Part shown: positions 1 through 5,483 of the stretch, piece by piece
How the letters are laid out: every line of letters begins with the position of its first letter
How positions within the stretch are numbered: position 1 is the stretch's first letter
Source of the DNA: Thermovirgaceae bacterium
Lineage (GTDB): Bacteria; Synergistota; Synergistia; Synergistales; Thermovirgaceae
Length of the DNA stretch: 64,000 bases
Reading direction: 5' to 3'
Assembly (NCBI GenBank): GCA_040767805.1
Contig: JAXGNU010000003.1
Coordinates: 32,001 to 96,000, forward strand
Program-made: the position numbers and the translations under genes
The notes under the pieces: generated by a model
Database searches by the model: none
What the model saw: only the letters and a program-made list of their open reading frames with translations
What the model was told of the DNA's origin: nothing

Positions 1-1128
1 GGGATCTGGAGTTCGGCGGCGAACTTATCGACGTCGCCGAAGGAAAGCCCTATCTTCTGCAGAGGTTCATAGACCAGCGCCGAGGTGATCGCCGCGGGGA
101 GGCGCCGGCACCCACCGAGTGTTTCCCGAGGGCATCGAGGCCTCCATGACCGGGCACGTGCCGTCATCTACATCCAGGAGGACGGCGAAGCTCCCGAGAC
201 AGTCTTCCAGGGCAGGCATGTCCTTCCTGACATGGTCCCGGCTGTTCATGTAAAGTTTTGGAACGGCTCCCCTGCCAGGACTACCACGTTGGGTCTCGCC
301 CCGCTCGCTACCTGGGTCGCCCCGGCTATCACCGCGTTGACAGGTCCTGCACAAAAACTCCTGATGTCGAAGCCCGAGGCATTCACGCACCCGGCGATCT
401 CGCAATGGCCTTGGCGAGTTCCCCCCGCCCCGCTGGTTCATGTCGCCCGCGGCTTCCTCGGAGCATTCGATGACGTAGTCGATGTCGGCCGGGGAAAGGC
501 CGGTGGACTTTAAAAGGTGAAGAAGAGCCAGCACCGATCCTGCCTTGCTGGCAATATTTTCAAGAAGAACGTGCGCGGAGAGTGATTCGTCGAGATCATG
601 CCCCTTCCTGCAACAACCGGCCACCCTGCCTCGGGAATAAAGTGGAAGGGCACCGTGTTCTTTCGTTTCCTTCTCTATCTCTGAAGAGGCATGACCTTTT
701 TCCAACCGCGTCAGGATCTTCTCGTTCATGAGCGGGTGCCTGGCCATGACTTCGCGGACTTCACCGGCGAAGGACTCTTCGAGCCAGATAATATCGAAGA
801 CATCGCAGATATCCATCAAGCCGAGGAACTCCTTCTCGGGCATGATCTCGCCGAATTTGCCGTACCGCGAGGCGCCATCGATCCTGTTACCGTACATCGG
901 GGCGGGCTGCGCCTTCAGGTCATCCAGGTCCATCCCCCCTATATAGGCTTGGTTGGGGGCGTAGGCACATGCTTCTTCATAGGACTGCATGCTTTTACAC
1001 AGTTTTTTTATGTACTCCGTCTCTCCGTGGGTGATCCTCTCAATGTACGGGGTGACCCCGTAGTGAAGCCCCAGTTCCGGGGTATGGTTTAGGCAATAGG
1101 AATAACCCCTGATAGCGACACGGGCCAT
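1..1128 (-). CDS. grdC: Glycine/sarcosine/betaine reductase component C beta subunit; runs off the window start; several apparent frameshifts in 140-420
   Basis: Motifs ENIASKAGSVLA, DYVIECSEEAAGDMNQRGGGN and KLYMNSRDHV. Alternate frames restore FAKAIAEIAGCVNASGFDIRSFCAGP and DALGKHSVGAGASP...DVDKFAAELQIP. Lies downstream of grdB. Confidence 0.9.
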
Positions 1129-1195: not shown

Positions 1196-2503
1196 TTAAT
1201 CGTTAAAAACCGTCTGGTCCTCTACGGGCGTCTGGAGAGCCTTGAGGGCTTTCTCCACGATGGCACGCCTGATCTTCTTCTCCTCCTCGGGGGTCTTCGT
1301 CGGGTCCCCCAGGGGGTGAGGGATGGCCACCGCAGGCACGATCCTGTTCGCTCCAACGGTGAGTGAAATGGGCACTATGGTGCAGACGTGGACGACGGGA
1401 AGCCCCGCCCTTTCGATCTCTTTGACGATCGTTGCGCCGCAACGAGTGCAGGTCCCTCAGGTGGAGGTCACTATCACGGCGTCCACGTTGGCGTCCTTGA
1501 GCTTCTGGGCGATCTCCGTCCCAAAACGCCTGGCGTTGCCCACGGAGGTGCCGTTGCCGACGGTCGCATAGAAAGTCTCGTGAAATTTCTTGAAGGCACC
1601 CTCTTTTTCAAGGTCCCGCATCACGTCGACGGGCAGGACCCTGTTGGGATCGTCGTTCGCGTAGGTGGGGTCGTAGCCGCCATGGGCCGTCTCATGGGTC
1701 GAAGAGTTTATTGTCATGACGCCGGCCAGGCTGTATTCTCCGTACTTCGACGCGCTCGATGCCTCGATGTGGTCGGGGTTGCCCTTCGGTACGATGCCGC
1801 CGGAGGTCACGAGGGCGATGGTCGCGCTCTTCATGTCAGCCACCGGCGGGTTGGGAGGCACCCTGTCAAAGGTCGGCATGGGATATTCCGTTGTGAAGGG
1901 CTCTCCCTTGAGCTTCTTCACGAACATATCCACGGCCCTCTCGGCCCCGATCTTGTCCATGAAGAAGTTCACCCTTACGCCTCTTTCGATGTAGCCTTCA
2001 TCATCGGGCTTGCCTATCGGCTCGCCCTTGAGTTGCTTGAGAAGAAGGCGGGCCATGGCAGGAACCGCATCCTTCATGCCCCTGGCGCTGTCAGCTGTTC
2101 TGGCGATGTAGGTCGACTTACGGTACATGTCAACGCCGGGGTTCTCCTCGTACATACCCGACACGGTCGGTAGACCGAGGTTCTTCCTGACCGCTTCGCA
2201 GACGGCGCCGCAGGCGGTGCCGTAACGGCCGGCGTTGAAGGCCGGCCCGGCGACGACCGCGTCGGGAGAAAAGGACGCGATCAGGTCCAGGACCTCCTTC
2301 TCAGCCTTTTCAAGGTTATCGGCGAAGTAGGTGTCCCCGCAGATCACCGTTCCCACGATCTCCGCGTCAGGGGCTAAGGCCGCGTTAAAGGCTTGGCCGG
2401 GTCCTACGAAACCCTTCCTGGATTCCGGCTTATGGCCAGCCATCTCTTCACCGCCGATGCCTGCGAAGAACTGGTTGATATAATGGACTACCTTGTACTT
2501 CAT
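1196..2503 (-). CDS. grdB: Glycine reductase selenoprotein B (435 aa), Sec at TGA 1457-1459
   Basis: Starts MKYKVVHYINQFFAGIGGEE. Reading through TGA gives TST-U-GTCTRCGATIVKEIERAG...IPHPLGDP...QTVFND* (TAA 1196-1198); UxxCxxC motif. Confidence 0.96.
1429..1445 (-). promoter_or_regulatory. SECIS element of grdB
   Basis: mRNA: UGA + 11 nt + UCGUUGC-GGC-GCAACGA hairpin with a G-starting loop. Confidence 0.75.
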
Positions 2504-2537
2504 ATGATCATTTCCCCCCTTTCTTCGGGGCTGCCCT

Positions 2538-3014
2538 CTAGAGGGTGTACTTCCCGTACTGTTCACGAACTCCCTTGACGGCGTTGGCGAGGCTCTCGGT
2601 CTCGAGCACCATCTCCATCATGCCGATCTGGTCGGCCCATACCGACGGGTCGGCCTCGTCCCGGATCTCCTGTTCGAAAACGTGGTATACCGCGAGTCCC
2701 AACGGGACTCCTGCCAGGGGACCTGCGAAGGTGGGATCGCCGTTGGTCACCGTTTCCGCGTAGATTTCGGCTCCCTCGGCATCGGAGGAACCCAGGATCA
2801 CTACCAGGTTCTCCGCCCCGTACTTCTCAGCCGCGTCCTTGACGCGCTGCTGGTTCTGCAGGTCCATGGCTCCCGCGGCGGTTCAGACGAAGCACTCCGT
2901 CACGGAGAAGACGATATCCCCCCCGCAATTCTTCAGGCTTTCCTCCATGGCGGGGGCGGCCACTCCATCCCTCTCGCCCAGAAGGAGCACCTTCTTGCCA
3001 GCGAGTTTGCCCAA
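2538..3014 (-). CDS. grdA: Glycine reductase selenoprotein A (158 aa), Sec44 at TGA 2883-2885
   Basis: TTG start after [27 protein letters not shown]...[17 protein letters not shown]...[11 protein letters not shown]; CxxU motif. Confidence 0.96.
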
Positions 3015-3057
3015 ATCAGGCACCTCCTTTAAAGTCAAAGATTTTTAGTGCTGATAC

Positions 3058-4344
3058 CTAGATAGTGTAGGCGCCGATCCGGCTGAAGCCGAGTTCGCTG
3101 GTCGCCCCGGTTATCGCCTGGATCTCCACCTCGATGGAACCGTCCTCCCTCAGGGAACCCTGGAAACCCCCGGCGATCACATTGGCCGTGTCGGGGAGCC
3201 CAATGATCCTCTCCATCCTTGGCAGCACGATGATCTCGTTGGCGTTGGCCGCCGTAACGACGGCATCGGCTTCGGGACAGGCGTCGGCCAGGGACTGGCT
3301 GGCCCCGTCCCTGCCCGCGTATTCGTCGGTTACCAGGACGGTCTTGATCCCGCCCTGTTCAGCATTGCGGCAGTTCATGATCAGGTCCGTATCGGGGTTG
3401 CCGAAACCTTCCTCGCTGATGATCACGCCTTCGACACCAAGCATCTTGGCCAGTTTCACGGCATAGGAGGAACTGCGCTTCTTGTCGGCGAGGGTGGTAT
3501 TCTCGTTGGTGATGACGCAGCCGACGAAGTTGAAATCCTTGCCGTGCCTTTTGTACATGTGCTGGATTATTGGGTTGTTCTGGTGAGAATAGGTATTGTT
3601 CTTGTCACAGGCGGAAACACAGTTACCGGAGACGATCGCCCCGTCCATGACCTCGTTGGGGTGAATTAGGGTAGGGATGATCCTCTTGGCATCGACACCG
3701 TAGACATAGGTATCGTGTAGAAGCCCCTGGGACTGCAGCATGTACAGGTAGGCCACCTTCGGGAGCCCCGGGAAGGACGTCATGGCCTTGGCGAGGTCCG
3801 GCAGGCAATAGCTTTCGACCTCTCCCCCGGTCGCGCCCTTGGCGGCAGCCGCTAGGTAGTGTGCCGTCTTCAGGCCGGCGAGCCGGCAAGCGGACTCGTA
3901 TTCGTGCTTTTCCAGGCCTTCGACGGGTTCGACGACCAGCACCACGTTGAGGGTCTTGGAAAAGGGCGTGTATTCCGCTCCCGGACCCGACATGTCGATG
4001 ATGCCTTCCTGGAAACCCACGATCTTCCCGCAGGTTACCACGGCGGCGCCGCTTAGGACGAGGGTGATGCCTTCACCCACCGTCTCAACGTCACCGATAA
4101 AGCCCGGGAACACCTCTCCAGGCCCTTCAAGTTTGCACCTCGGCTCCACCACGTCCTTGACCGGCAGGATTCTAGTGCTCTCCCCCGGCAAGGCAAGCTC
4201 AACCTTGGCGCTGGAGAACCTCTGGTCCTTCATCACCATGTCGACGATCTCACGTCGGTTCACCCTTAAAACCCCGTCTTTGAAGGAAGTCTTGTCTCCG
4301 TCCAGAAGGGACTTTACGGCTACTCTCTTGAGTTTAAGTTCCAA
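3058..4344 (-). CDS. grdE: Glycine/sarcosine reductase component B proprotein (pyruvoyl-forming)
   Basis: 428 aa; LQSQGLLHDTYVYG, EVMDGAIVSGNCVSACDKN cleavage region, EEGFGNPDTD. Confidence 0.93.
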   Translation of the reverse strand: MELKLKRVAVKSLLDGDKTSFKDGVLRVNRREIVDMVMKDQRFSSAKVELALPGESTRILPVKDVVEPRCKLEGPGEVFPGFIGDVETVGEGITLVLSGAAVVTCGKIVGFQEGIIDMSGPGAEYTPFSKTLNVVLVVEPVEGLEKHEYESACRLAGLKTAHYLAAAAKGATGGEVESYCLPDLAKAMTSFPGLPKVAYLYMLQSQGLLHDTYVYGVDAKRIIPTLIHPNEVMDGAIVSGNCVSACDKNNTYSHQNNPIIQHMYKRHGKDFNFVGCVITNENTTLADKKRSSSYAVKLAKMLGVEGVIISEEGFGNPDTDLIMNCRNAEQGGIKTVLVTDEYAGRDGASQSLADACPEADAVVTAANANEIIVLPRMERIIGLPDTANVIAGGFQGSLREDGSIEVEIQAITGATSELGFSRIGAYTI

Positions 4345-4375: not shown

Positions 4376-4699
4376 CTATTCGGCCCACTCCTTTACCCTC
4401 TCCTCGATCTTTTCAGCCACTGCCTCGGCTCCACTCAGCCTGGGGCCGTCCTCCTTCCCTCCCTTGTAGAACAGGAAGGTCGGCACCCCCATGACTCTGA
4501 GGGATATGACGAGCTTGCGGTTCTCGGCGACGTTGAGCTTGCAGAACTTGACCTTGCCCTCGTATTTGCGGGAGATCTCCTCCACCTTCGGCATCAGCGC
4601 CAGGCAAGGGCCGCACTGCGGACCCCAAAGGTCAACCAGCACAGGAAGGTCGCTCTTCAGGACCTCTTCTTCGAAGTTTTCCTTGTTCAATTCGATCAT
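4376..4699 (-). CDS. trxA: Thioredoxin (glycine reductase-associated)
   Basis: WGPQCGPC active site, GVPTFLF; ATG overlaps the grdX stop (ATGA). Confidence 0.93.
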   Translation of the reverse strand: MIELNKENFEEEVLKSDLPVLVDLWGPQCGPCLALMPKVEEISRKYEGKVKFCKLNVAENRKLVISLRVMGVPTFLFYKGGKEDGPRLSGAEAVAEKIEERVKEWAE

Positions 4700-5160
4700 C
4701 TTTTCACCTCCCTTCGGTTTTCTCCGCCCTTCGGGGTTTGACGGGTGCTCCCGGGTCCATCACAGGCGCCGCCTTTAAGCAAACCGTATCTCTCCATGCT
4801 GTCCTGCAGCAGGTATACATCAAGGGCGGCAAAGTCCTCCAGGTGGCGGTTTTCCACGGCGGGCTTCACGGGGTGAACACCCTCCGCCCTGTAAAGATCG
4901 ATGGCTCTCTCGAGAATGGAAAGCGATCCAAGGTCGATGCCCCTTTTTTCGTCGGGCAGTCCGACGAGGACGCTCCTGAAGTGTTGCTGGGAGGGCTGGA
5001 TGTTCCCATAAAGGGGATGGGTCAAAAGCAGCCACCCGGCATGGACGCGATCTCTCGCAAGGGTCAGCACGTTAAGGGGGCCACCCTCAACGAAGGTGGC
5101 TTTCAGTGAGAGGTCTCAAAGCCGGGCGTTATTCGTGAGGCAGTCGATCTCCTGGAACAC
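4696..5160 (-). CDS. grdX: GrdX family protein with an in-frame TGA at codon 15 (5116-5118)
   Basis: GTG start after AGGGGG; MFQEIDCLTNNARL*DLSLKATFVEGGPLNVLTLARDRVHAGWLLLTHPLYGN...FRSVLV...DFAALD. The family motifs TNN and HPLYG lie on either side of the TGA in the same frame. Confidence 0.85.
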
Positions 5161-5162
5161 TG

Positions 5163-5192
5163 AAAAACCCCCTATTCATTGAATAGGTGGGT
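5163..5192 (-). terminator. Riboswitch expression-platform hairpin (terminator and/or RBS sequester for grdX)
   Basis: mRNA ACCCACCUAUUC-AAU-GAAUAGGGGGU-UUUU just before the grdX GTG; the 3' arm contains the SD. Confidence 0.7.
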
Positions 5193-5374
5193 CCTCTGTC
5201 CAGAAATTCTCCTACGGGAGGACACTGACGCCGAAAGGGCCTCCCGCGCCTGTCCAGAGACTTGTCCGGCCGCAATCCTTTGGCCTGAGAGTTTCGCGAT
5301 CCTGTCGATCGCTTGCCCCTTCGGCTCCCCCGCTCGAGGGAAAAGCACGGGGGTATCTCTTGCGGCCTTCATCC
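5193..5374 (-). ncRNA. Glycine riboswitch: one intact aptamer (5268-5367) plus a degenerate second domain (5193-5260)
   Basis: GGAUGAA leader; P1 GGCCGCAA/UUGCGGCC; AGAGA, GCCGAAGG, GCAA and GAAACUCUCAGG..AAAGGA conserved blocks; linker GGAC then CUCUGGA...GGACAGAG. Confidence 0.88.
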
Positions 5375-5389
5375 AAAAATTCCTTGTTG

Positions 5390-5418
5390 ATTTTCTCATG
5401 ATGAAAGGGAAAGGTCAA
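5390..5418 (-). promoter_or_regulatory. Putative sigma70 promoter of the grd operon
   Basis: TTGACC-17 nt-GAAAAT with a TG extension, 15 nt upstream of the riboswitch leader. Confidence 0.55.
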
Positions 5419-5428
5419 CGAGGCGGTG

Positions 5429-5455
5429 AAAAAAGCGGGGGCTTCAAGCCCCCGC
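5429..5455 (-). terminator. Intrinsic terminator after the NSS transporter
   Basis: GCGGGGGCT-TGA-AGCCCCCGC-TTTTTT. Confidence 0.85.
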
Positions 5456-5483
5456 CGGGTCAAAGACGAAATAGAGGCGGTTC

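Follow-up and report, generated by a model that had tools for sequence, protein, structure and literature searches.

GrdX is a conserved protein of unknown function that heads the otherwise well-studied glycine reductase (grd) operon. Members of the family (NF038093; Pfam PF28011) share the motifs TNN, RD..H.G and HPLYG, and in C. difficile the gene opens the operon, with a glycine riboswitch ahead of it, as described in the consulted sections of 10.1101/2023.06.30.547236. Here we describe the grdX gene found in a 64,000-nucleotide stretch of DNA from a Thermovirgaceae bacterium of the phylum Synergistota (assembly GCA_040767805.1, contig JAXGNU010000003.1, positions 32,001 to 96,000), which we call the window. 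The gene has the motifs and the riboswitch-proximal position of the family. It departs from the family as described by an in-frame UGA, at codon 15. A first-pass annotation made from the letters of the window had proposed, on the basis of this UGA and of a hairpin shortly downstream that resembles a bacterial selenocysteine insertion sequence (SECIS), that grdX is either a candidate new selenoprotein or a selenium-sensing gate. When the minus strand was reread, the positions it gave for the grdX start, the TGA, the hairpin, an internal GTG at 5070 and the GAGGGU ahead of that GTG were all correct.

The closest comparison is with recoded genes of the same genome. Like grdB, selD and grdA, two of which (grdA and grdB) lie in the same operon, grdX has an in-frame UGA followed, inside the open reading frame, by a stable stem with a short loop that begins with G. 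It differs from the grdB and selD elements in having a stem of 9 rather than 6–7 base pairs and a GUU rather than a GGC or GGA loop, which starts 24 rather than 17–18 nucleotides after the UGA. Standard bacterial selenocysteine (Sec) genes offer a further contrast, since the proposed Sec site of grdX matches no conserved Cys or redox motif in its family and its hairpin matches no Rfam SECIS model. A second comparison is with the selenoprotein families of the Haft preprint (10.1101/2022.07.06.499078), in which, according to the parts of that text consulted, only fragments are recorded because gene callers end a frame at the Sec codon or begin a new one there. The same is seen for grdX. Unlike in those families, the proposed Sec lies near the N-terminus and at four positions in different clades.

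We consider it probable, from sequence comparison, that grdX is a complete gene whose UGA-15 is decoded as selenocysteine via SelB, giving full-length GrdX. With the UGA in the ribosomal A site, the 9-bp, GUU-triloop hairpin 15 nucleotides downstream would recruit SelB.GTP.Sec-tRNA(Sec); Sec would be inserted and translation would proceed to a GrdX of 154 residues, the third selenoprotein of the grd operon. SelB-directed insertion is the best explanation because the TGA and the hairpin are conserved, protein-level selection acts on both of its sides, hairpins in other clades move with the TGA, and the Sec machinery is present. From this combination we infer both the binding of SelB to the hairpin and the identity of the inserted residue as Sec. 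The earlier proposal of a candidate new selenoprotein is thereby supported by a conserved UGA, by a conserved SECIS-like hairpin and by the identity of the gene, which scores 85.6 bits against NF038093 (cut-off 40; E 2.4e-24), with residues 8–122 covering profile positions 3–118 of 119. Most likely, grdX represents a previously unrecognised selenoprotein family, which relies on the ordinary recoding machinery of bacteria and is unusual in its several independent N-terminal Sec sites and in having no conserved Cys counterpart.

The frame reads MFQEIDCLTNNARL, the TGA (5118-5116) and then DLSLKATFVEGG, and continues through HPLYGN to its stop. DNA contigs from two sequencing runs of different studies, which may be the source sample, cover 4690-5400 with zero differences, and a contig from an RNA library spans 5077-5270, start codon and TGA included, with 0 differing letters. 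The UGA is thus real, as all of these agree with the window at 5116-5118. A homologue search in 41 related genomes found GrdX in 36. The nine best matches, from the genome under study (G000), four congeners and four genomes of three further Thermovirgaceae genera, all have TGA at the identical codon, at protein identities down to 58% (genera g1, g2, g4 and g5). A DNA pattern built on HPLYGN(I/V)QP, which matched 8/9 of the TGA-bearing loci and 0 of 55 others, was then used on metagenome contigs. It gave 26 loci, 3 of them unrelated chance matches; 22 of the remaining 23 grdX loci carry the TGA, the exception (L086) having TGG. Overall, the codon is TGA in 31/32 sequences of this group (hereafter group 1; 32 sequences, 19 distinct), and coding conservation is present on both sides of it. 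TGA is also the commonest stop codon of the genome, ending 1294 of the 2492 open frames of at least 200 codons, and ends grdX itself, which excludes a genome-wide reassignment.

The codon ahead of the TGA is a Leu codon (CTN) in 18/18 distinct TGA-bearing sequences of group 1, and likewise at the TGA sites described below for two other genera (8/8 genomes of g13 and 3/3 of g17), with ATC in the genome G205. The preference for Leu may reflect an influence of codon context on how Sec is inserted.

The codons upstream of the TGA behave as part of the protein. The peptide MFQEI(D/E)CLTNNA is conserved while its synonymous sites vary (four codons for T9, three for L8, two for N10), and codons 1–14 line up with the start of GrdX proteins, their near-invariant TNN motif included, both phylum-wide and among 149 representative homologues. 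These alignments indicate that codons 1–14 are under protein-level selection and belong to the protein. In an AlphaFold model of GrdX (mean predicted local distance difference test score 88.8), residues 2–9 form strand 1, residues 12–17 a short helix and residues 21–23 strand 2. Residue 15 therefore lies on the short helix that follows strand 1. Cys-7, on strand 1, is invariant both in group 1 and in genus g17. A Foldseek search of the PDB with the model returned nothing at E up to 0.001, and a wide VIA-align search gave a best Z of 3.2, with no convincing relative among solved structures; the fold offers no clue to function.

The hairpin has nine pairs, one of them G-U, and a loop that begins 24 nucleotides after the UGA. 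Like bacterial SECIS elements, it folds into a stem-loop a short way past the UGA and has a G opening its apical loop; such loops reportedly start 16–37 nucleotides from the UGA, a window said to go back to Zhang and Gladyshev in 2005. Folded as a single sequence, 5060-5125 has a minimum free energy structure (-23 kcal/mol) with different pairing, the hairpin at 5080-5100 alone reaching about -14 to -15 kcal/mol. That alternative was rejected, as relatives do not keep it. Over 20 relatives, RNAalifold returned the hairpin as the only consensus structure, and its cells are paired in 96.7% of cases versus 32–59% when the 3' partner is slid. Changes in both partners are seen at two pairs, 31-51 (G-C/G-U/A-U) and 34-48 (A-U/U-A). 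Synonymous diversity is 0.20 in hairpin codons 22–27 (codon 21 was unscored) versus 0.53 in codons 28–69 (Mann-Whitney p=0.0036, a descriptive figure, as the sequences are related). Codons 22–26 are ACC in 18/18, TTC in 19/19, GTT in 18/19, GAR, and GGT in 18/19 sequences, GTT and GGT being retained despite a genome of 61% GC. These patterns indicate that the hairpin is under RNA-level constraint, and the SECIS-like element first described in the window is thus present as described and conserved. A scan for perfect stems of at least 9 pairs, with G in the first two loop bases and a loop starting 16–37 nucleotides downstream, found such a hairpin at 1.2% of 200,000 random positions and after 1.3% of the 47,489 TGA triplets in the genome. 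A single case is therefore only mildly unusual, and the weight of the evidence comes from conservation.

Independent pairs of UGA and hairpin occur at other N-terminal grdX codons in three other Synergistota clades. A search of the phylum covered 268 genomes, 186 of them with a match, and these further TGA sets were drawn from the best 150 of 202 match rows. In genus g13, the TGA lies seven codons further downstream (..NL-U-..SSAWEVL) in all 8 orthologues found; a ninth genome, 56% complete, yielded only a paralogue. The g13 hairpin, CCAGYGCCU-GGG-AGGUGCUGG, follows 10 nucleotides after the TGA as an invariant block amid variable flanks. In genus g17, the TGA stands just ahead of VEG or VSG in 3/3 genomes and is followed after 13 nucleotides by GCGGGGAG-GUN-CUCCUCGC. 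In g50, 1/6 genomes (G205) has TGA in place of the Cys-7 codon, which is TGC or TGT in the five congeners; the G205 hairpin, GUCGCUC-GGCG-GAGCGGC, lies 14 nucleotides after the TGA, and the sequence is missing from the five Cys congeners. The four TGA sets form separate clades on a GrdX tree of 61 rows, and all four sites fall within the first 23 codons of grdX. At matching places in homologues without the TGA, the best stems are mostly short, a few having 8–11 pairs. Many hits that the phylum search had flagged as carrying one TGA were discarded as internal cases, the TGA being the terminal stop codon.

The genome has the means to decode these codons: selA, selB, selD and a tRNA-Sec (anticodon tca) were found. 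Its four grdB genes and selD have SECIS stems of 6–7 bp with GGC or GGA triloops starting 17–18 nucleotides after the UGA. The grdX hairpins of the four clades, with loops starting 19–24 nucleotides after the UGA, share the G-first style of these elements. In the window, the grdB element is the only Rfam SECIS match (SECIS_4, 52.3 bits). Three more grdB paralogues lie on other contigs of the genome (C13, C5 and C2), all of them carrying a Sec codon and a SECIS with a GGC or GGA triloop, and of the two selD genes one has a Sec codon and the other none. The SECIS of grdA is not obvious, as 2840-2885 on the minus strand has no Rfam match and a simple scan gave only a 4-bp stem.

Several observations weigh against Sec insertion guided by this hairpin. 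Relative to the genome's own SECIS elements, the grdX loop comes late and its GUU departs from the GGN form. At 5080-5100 the Rfam SECIS models give no hit, even with E allowed up to 10, a null result that says little on function, because the grdA site in the window is also unmatched. The near-constancy of the stem leaves little covariation: in 3 cells both partners change, a number matched by 96/500 shuffles. Position 15 is hypervariable among 134 representatives (R 16, A 16, K 12, L 12; Cys 3), and the nearest relatives without the TGA have Trp (L086, TGG), Lys (P0009) or Arg (L010), not Cys. P0009 nests inside the TGA clade on the GrdX tree. Finally, the sister lineage L010 (genome G006) keeps an 8-bp hairpin with a GUA loop and an A-U to U-A flip without having the TGA. 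Codon 15 there is CGC (Arg); Phe takes the place of Cys-7, and position 12, one helical turn ahead of 15, is Cys. The hairpin might thus serve, or once have served, a different purpose, having either predated the TGA or outlived it. A hairpin at the same place without the TGA suggests a route by which new Sec sites can arise.

L086 is otherwise nearly identical to L002 and L082 and has an unchanged hairpin. Its TGG could be either a recent loss of Sec or a hint at a tolerated residue.

What the residue does is a separate matter. The first-pass annotation took the site not to be a conserved Cys, and with Cys in 3/134 representatives this is borne out. Cys is nevertheless found aligned with the proposed Sec in several places: in G085 at position 15, in G259 at the g17 site, and in 5/5 congeners of G205 at position 7. 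Cys makes up 2.6% of the GrdX N-terminal segment versus 1.2% elsewhere in the protein. A chemical role is argued for because Cys-7 is invariant in group 1 and g17, Sec replaces Cys in G205, Cys aligns with Sec in G259 and G085, and the N-terminal segment is enriched in Cys. In the structural model, the placement of Sec-15 near strand 1 with its invariant Cys-7 would be compatible with a thiol/selenol role. The pattern of residue replacement in relatives fits a selenium-availability gate about equally well.

Such a gate shares the mechanism of SelB-directed Sec insertion and differs only in purpose. Sec would be inserted, the residue itself would be unimportant, and the early UGA with its SECIS would tie translation of the leader gene to charged Sec-tRNA; as the purpose of the UGA, we hold this to be possible but doubtful. 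When selenium is scarce, ribosomes would stop at codon 15 and the untranslated mRNA would be terminated, degraded or poorly coupled, an outcome we put forward tentatively. The cell would be spared making TrxA, GrdE and two obligate selenoproteins, a benefit that we again consider unlikely, if conceivable, as the reason for the arrangement. Operon expression would then depend on two inputs, glycine by way of the riboswitch and charged Sec-tRNA by way of SelB and the hairpin, and the checkpoint would have arisen at least four times in Synergistota, which we find a less than probable history.

The layout of the gene fits such a checkpoint. All four independent TGA sites lie near the start of grdX, which is the first open reading frame after the glycine riboswitch in 14/15 loci examined, and in the window a promoter-like site and a terminator-like platform lie upstream. 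Three GrdX paralogues of the genome sit directly downstream of grdB paralogues; they are not leader genes and have no internal TGA. The hypervariability of the site, with Trp, Lys or Arg where the TGA is missing, points the same way, as does the overlap of the grdX stop with the trxA start, which is, however, not conserved in relatives. There is a precedent in Treponema primitia fdhF(Sec), where, according to the portion consulted of PMC3892789, selenium controls transcription through translation coupling and the Sec codon makes downstream expression selenium-dependent. The T. primitia UGA encodes the enzyme's own catalytic Sec, whereas the grdX UGA would be an early codon of a small leader gene in control of an operon of several genes. 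Against a checkpoint, grdA and grdB already contain UGA codons of their own, and Cys at the equivalent sites in G085, G259 and the five congeners of G205 speaks for a chemical role. In G000 (80.6% complete) and G002 (91% complete), both of genus g1, no Rho (TIGR00767) was found; it scored above cut-off in 4/4 other Synergistota examined. Rho-type polarity is therefore doubtful in this genus.

Readthrough without Sec is improbable. In that case, a leaky UGA would be read by a near-cognate tRNA such as tRNA-Trp, perhaps stimulated by the hairpin, and would keep GrdX at a low level. The intact hairpin beside TGG in L086, Trp at position 15 in 4/134 representatives, and the spacing and loop of the hairpin, unlike those of the genome's own SECIS elements, would all suit this. 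However, among single transitions that turn TGA into a sense codon, the one to TGG is simply the easiest. Moreover, stems with a G-first loop starting 19–24 nucleotides downstream follow each of four independent TGAs and resemble the grdB and selD SECIS elements, and Sec machinery is in use in the same operon in all carriers.

A product started downstream of the UGA is very improbable. The first-pass annotation had offered re-initiation at the internal GTG 5070 as an alternative. Such re-initiation after termination at codon 15, or an independent start at this GTG, would give the N-truncated GrdX of current annotations. A GAGGGU does lie ahead of this GTG in the genome, and database proteins begin there (P0004); the GrdX versions in databases are N-terminally truncated, 18 matches covering 54–85% of the query. 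However, only 6 of the 19 distinct relatives have GTG here; the others have GTT (9), GTA (3) or GTC (1), and among these 19 we found no conserved in-frame start codon other than the gene start. The shortened product would also be without strands 1 and 2 of a confidently modelled fold and without the near-invariant TNN motif. As codons 1–14 belong to the protein and GTG 5070 is not conserved, readthrough is required, and the re-initiation model fails. Candidate truncated or TGA-bearing forms in other lineages were also followed up. The nearest relative of P0034, G165, is not truncated, and P0034 was set aside; five matches that start late in the query (L099-L103) have insertions and no TGA; the N-truncated representative P0097 was not found in the 268 Synergistota genomes or in a search of genome contigs.

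A pseudogene, nonsense mutation or sequencing error, which a single TGA taken alone would permit and which the first-pass annotation had left standing, is rejected as barely credible, the TGA being kept in 31/32 independent group-1 sequences with the frame intact and conserved on both sides, and separate DNA runs and one RNA library matching the window.

The first-pass annotation had taken GrdX not to be a described selenoprotein, and the literature searched agrees. In a full-text search of the main texts of articles, GrdX was nowhere reported to be a selenoprotein. It is not called one in the consulted parts of the Haft preprint, the C. difficile grd preprint or the Cloacibacillus paper, the Haft text naming GrdX, where consulted, as co-occurring with its SAO system. 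GrdX, NF038093 and PF28011 are absent from the main text of a 2026 review of the prokaryotic selenoproteome. Synergistota have already been noted as selenoprotein-rich (PMC13188914, in the part consulted). As grdX annotations are truncated, counts of the Synergistota selenoproteome miss these genes. If our reading is correct, grdX enlarges the set of selenoprotein families by one and may provide the operon with a selenium checkpoint. For a protein of this kind, Sec at four positions of the N-terminal strand-helix segment would be the first chemical hint, a thiol/selenol surface beside Cys-7; alternatively, these sites would hint at a novel link between an operon and the supply of selenium.

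Table 1. Features of the grdX locus. Positions refer to the window, except in the last row.
Feature	Position	Strand	Remarks
Terminator of the preceding sodium:solute symporter (transporter) gene	5434-5456	-	Upstream of the promoter-like site
Promoter-like site	5390..5418	-	TTGACC-17-GAAAAT, TG ahead of the second hexamer; consensus scan only
Glycine riboswitch	5192..5376	-	Apparently a tandem aptamer; in the grdX 5' leader
Terminator-like hairpin and T-run	5163..5187	-	7 pairs (5187-5171)
grdX	4696..5160	-	154 codons and stop if TGA-15 is read through; first gene of the operon
grdX start and stop codons	5160-5158; 4698-4696	-	GTG start; TGA stop
Cys-7 codon (TGC)	5140..5142	-	On strand 1; invariant in group 1
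In-frame TGA, codon 15	5116..5118	-	Proposed selenocysteine codon
Spacer between UGA and hairpin	5101..5115	-	15 nucleotides; sequence variable among relatives
SECIS-like hairpin	5080..5100	-	GCCACCUUC-GUU-GAGGGUGGC; encodes A-T-F-V-E-G-G
Internal GTG (Val-31)	5068..5070	-	Re-initiation start of the first-pass annotation; not conserved
trxA (thioredoxin)	4376..4699	-	ATG overlaps the grdX stop (ATGA)
grdE (glycine reductase component B proprotein)	3058..4344	-	PF09338, E 1.3e-204
grdA (selenoprotein A)	2538..3038	-	TGA 2883-2885
grdB (selenoprotein B)	1203..2566	-	TGA 1457-1459; SECIS 1419-1456 (Rfam SECIS_4)
GrdC-beta-like open reading frame	67-1128	-	353 aa; downstream of grdB
Hairpin of L010	L010:1528-1600		CUUCCCUC-GUA-GAGGGAGG; at the homologous place

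The remaining features of the locus are those of a riboswitch-controlled grd operon that makes up a complete transcription unit, with trxA, grdE, grdA and grdB directly after grdX on the same strand and the glycine riboswitch upstream (Table 1). The riboswitch matches RF00504 at 5263-5372 with 66.1 bits (gathering score 32), and the tandem-aptamer model RF03166 at 5192-5376 with 79.2 bits, under its gathering score of 110. The terminator-like hairpin that follows is kept in L001-L009 and is probably the expression platform of the riboswitch. An AGGGGG Shine-Dalgarno sequence lies within its 3' arm and tail, 7 nucleotides ahead of GTG 5160. At the other end of grdX, the overlap of its stop with the trxA start (4696-4699) sits behind a strong GGGAGGTG. 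The GrdC-beta-like open reading frame reaches 352 bits against an NCBIfam cut-off of 450, its best stretch covering profile positions 2-234 of 477, and may be interrupted or divergent.

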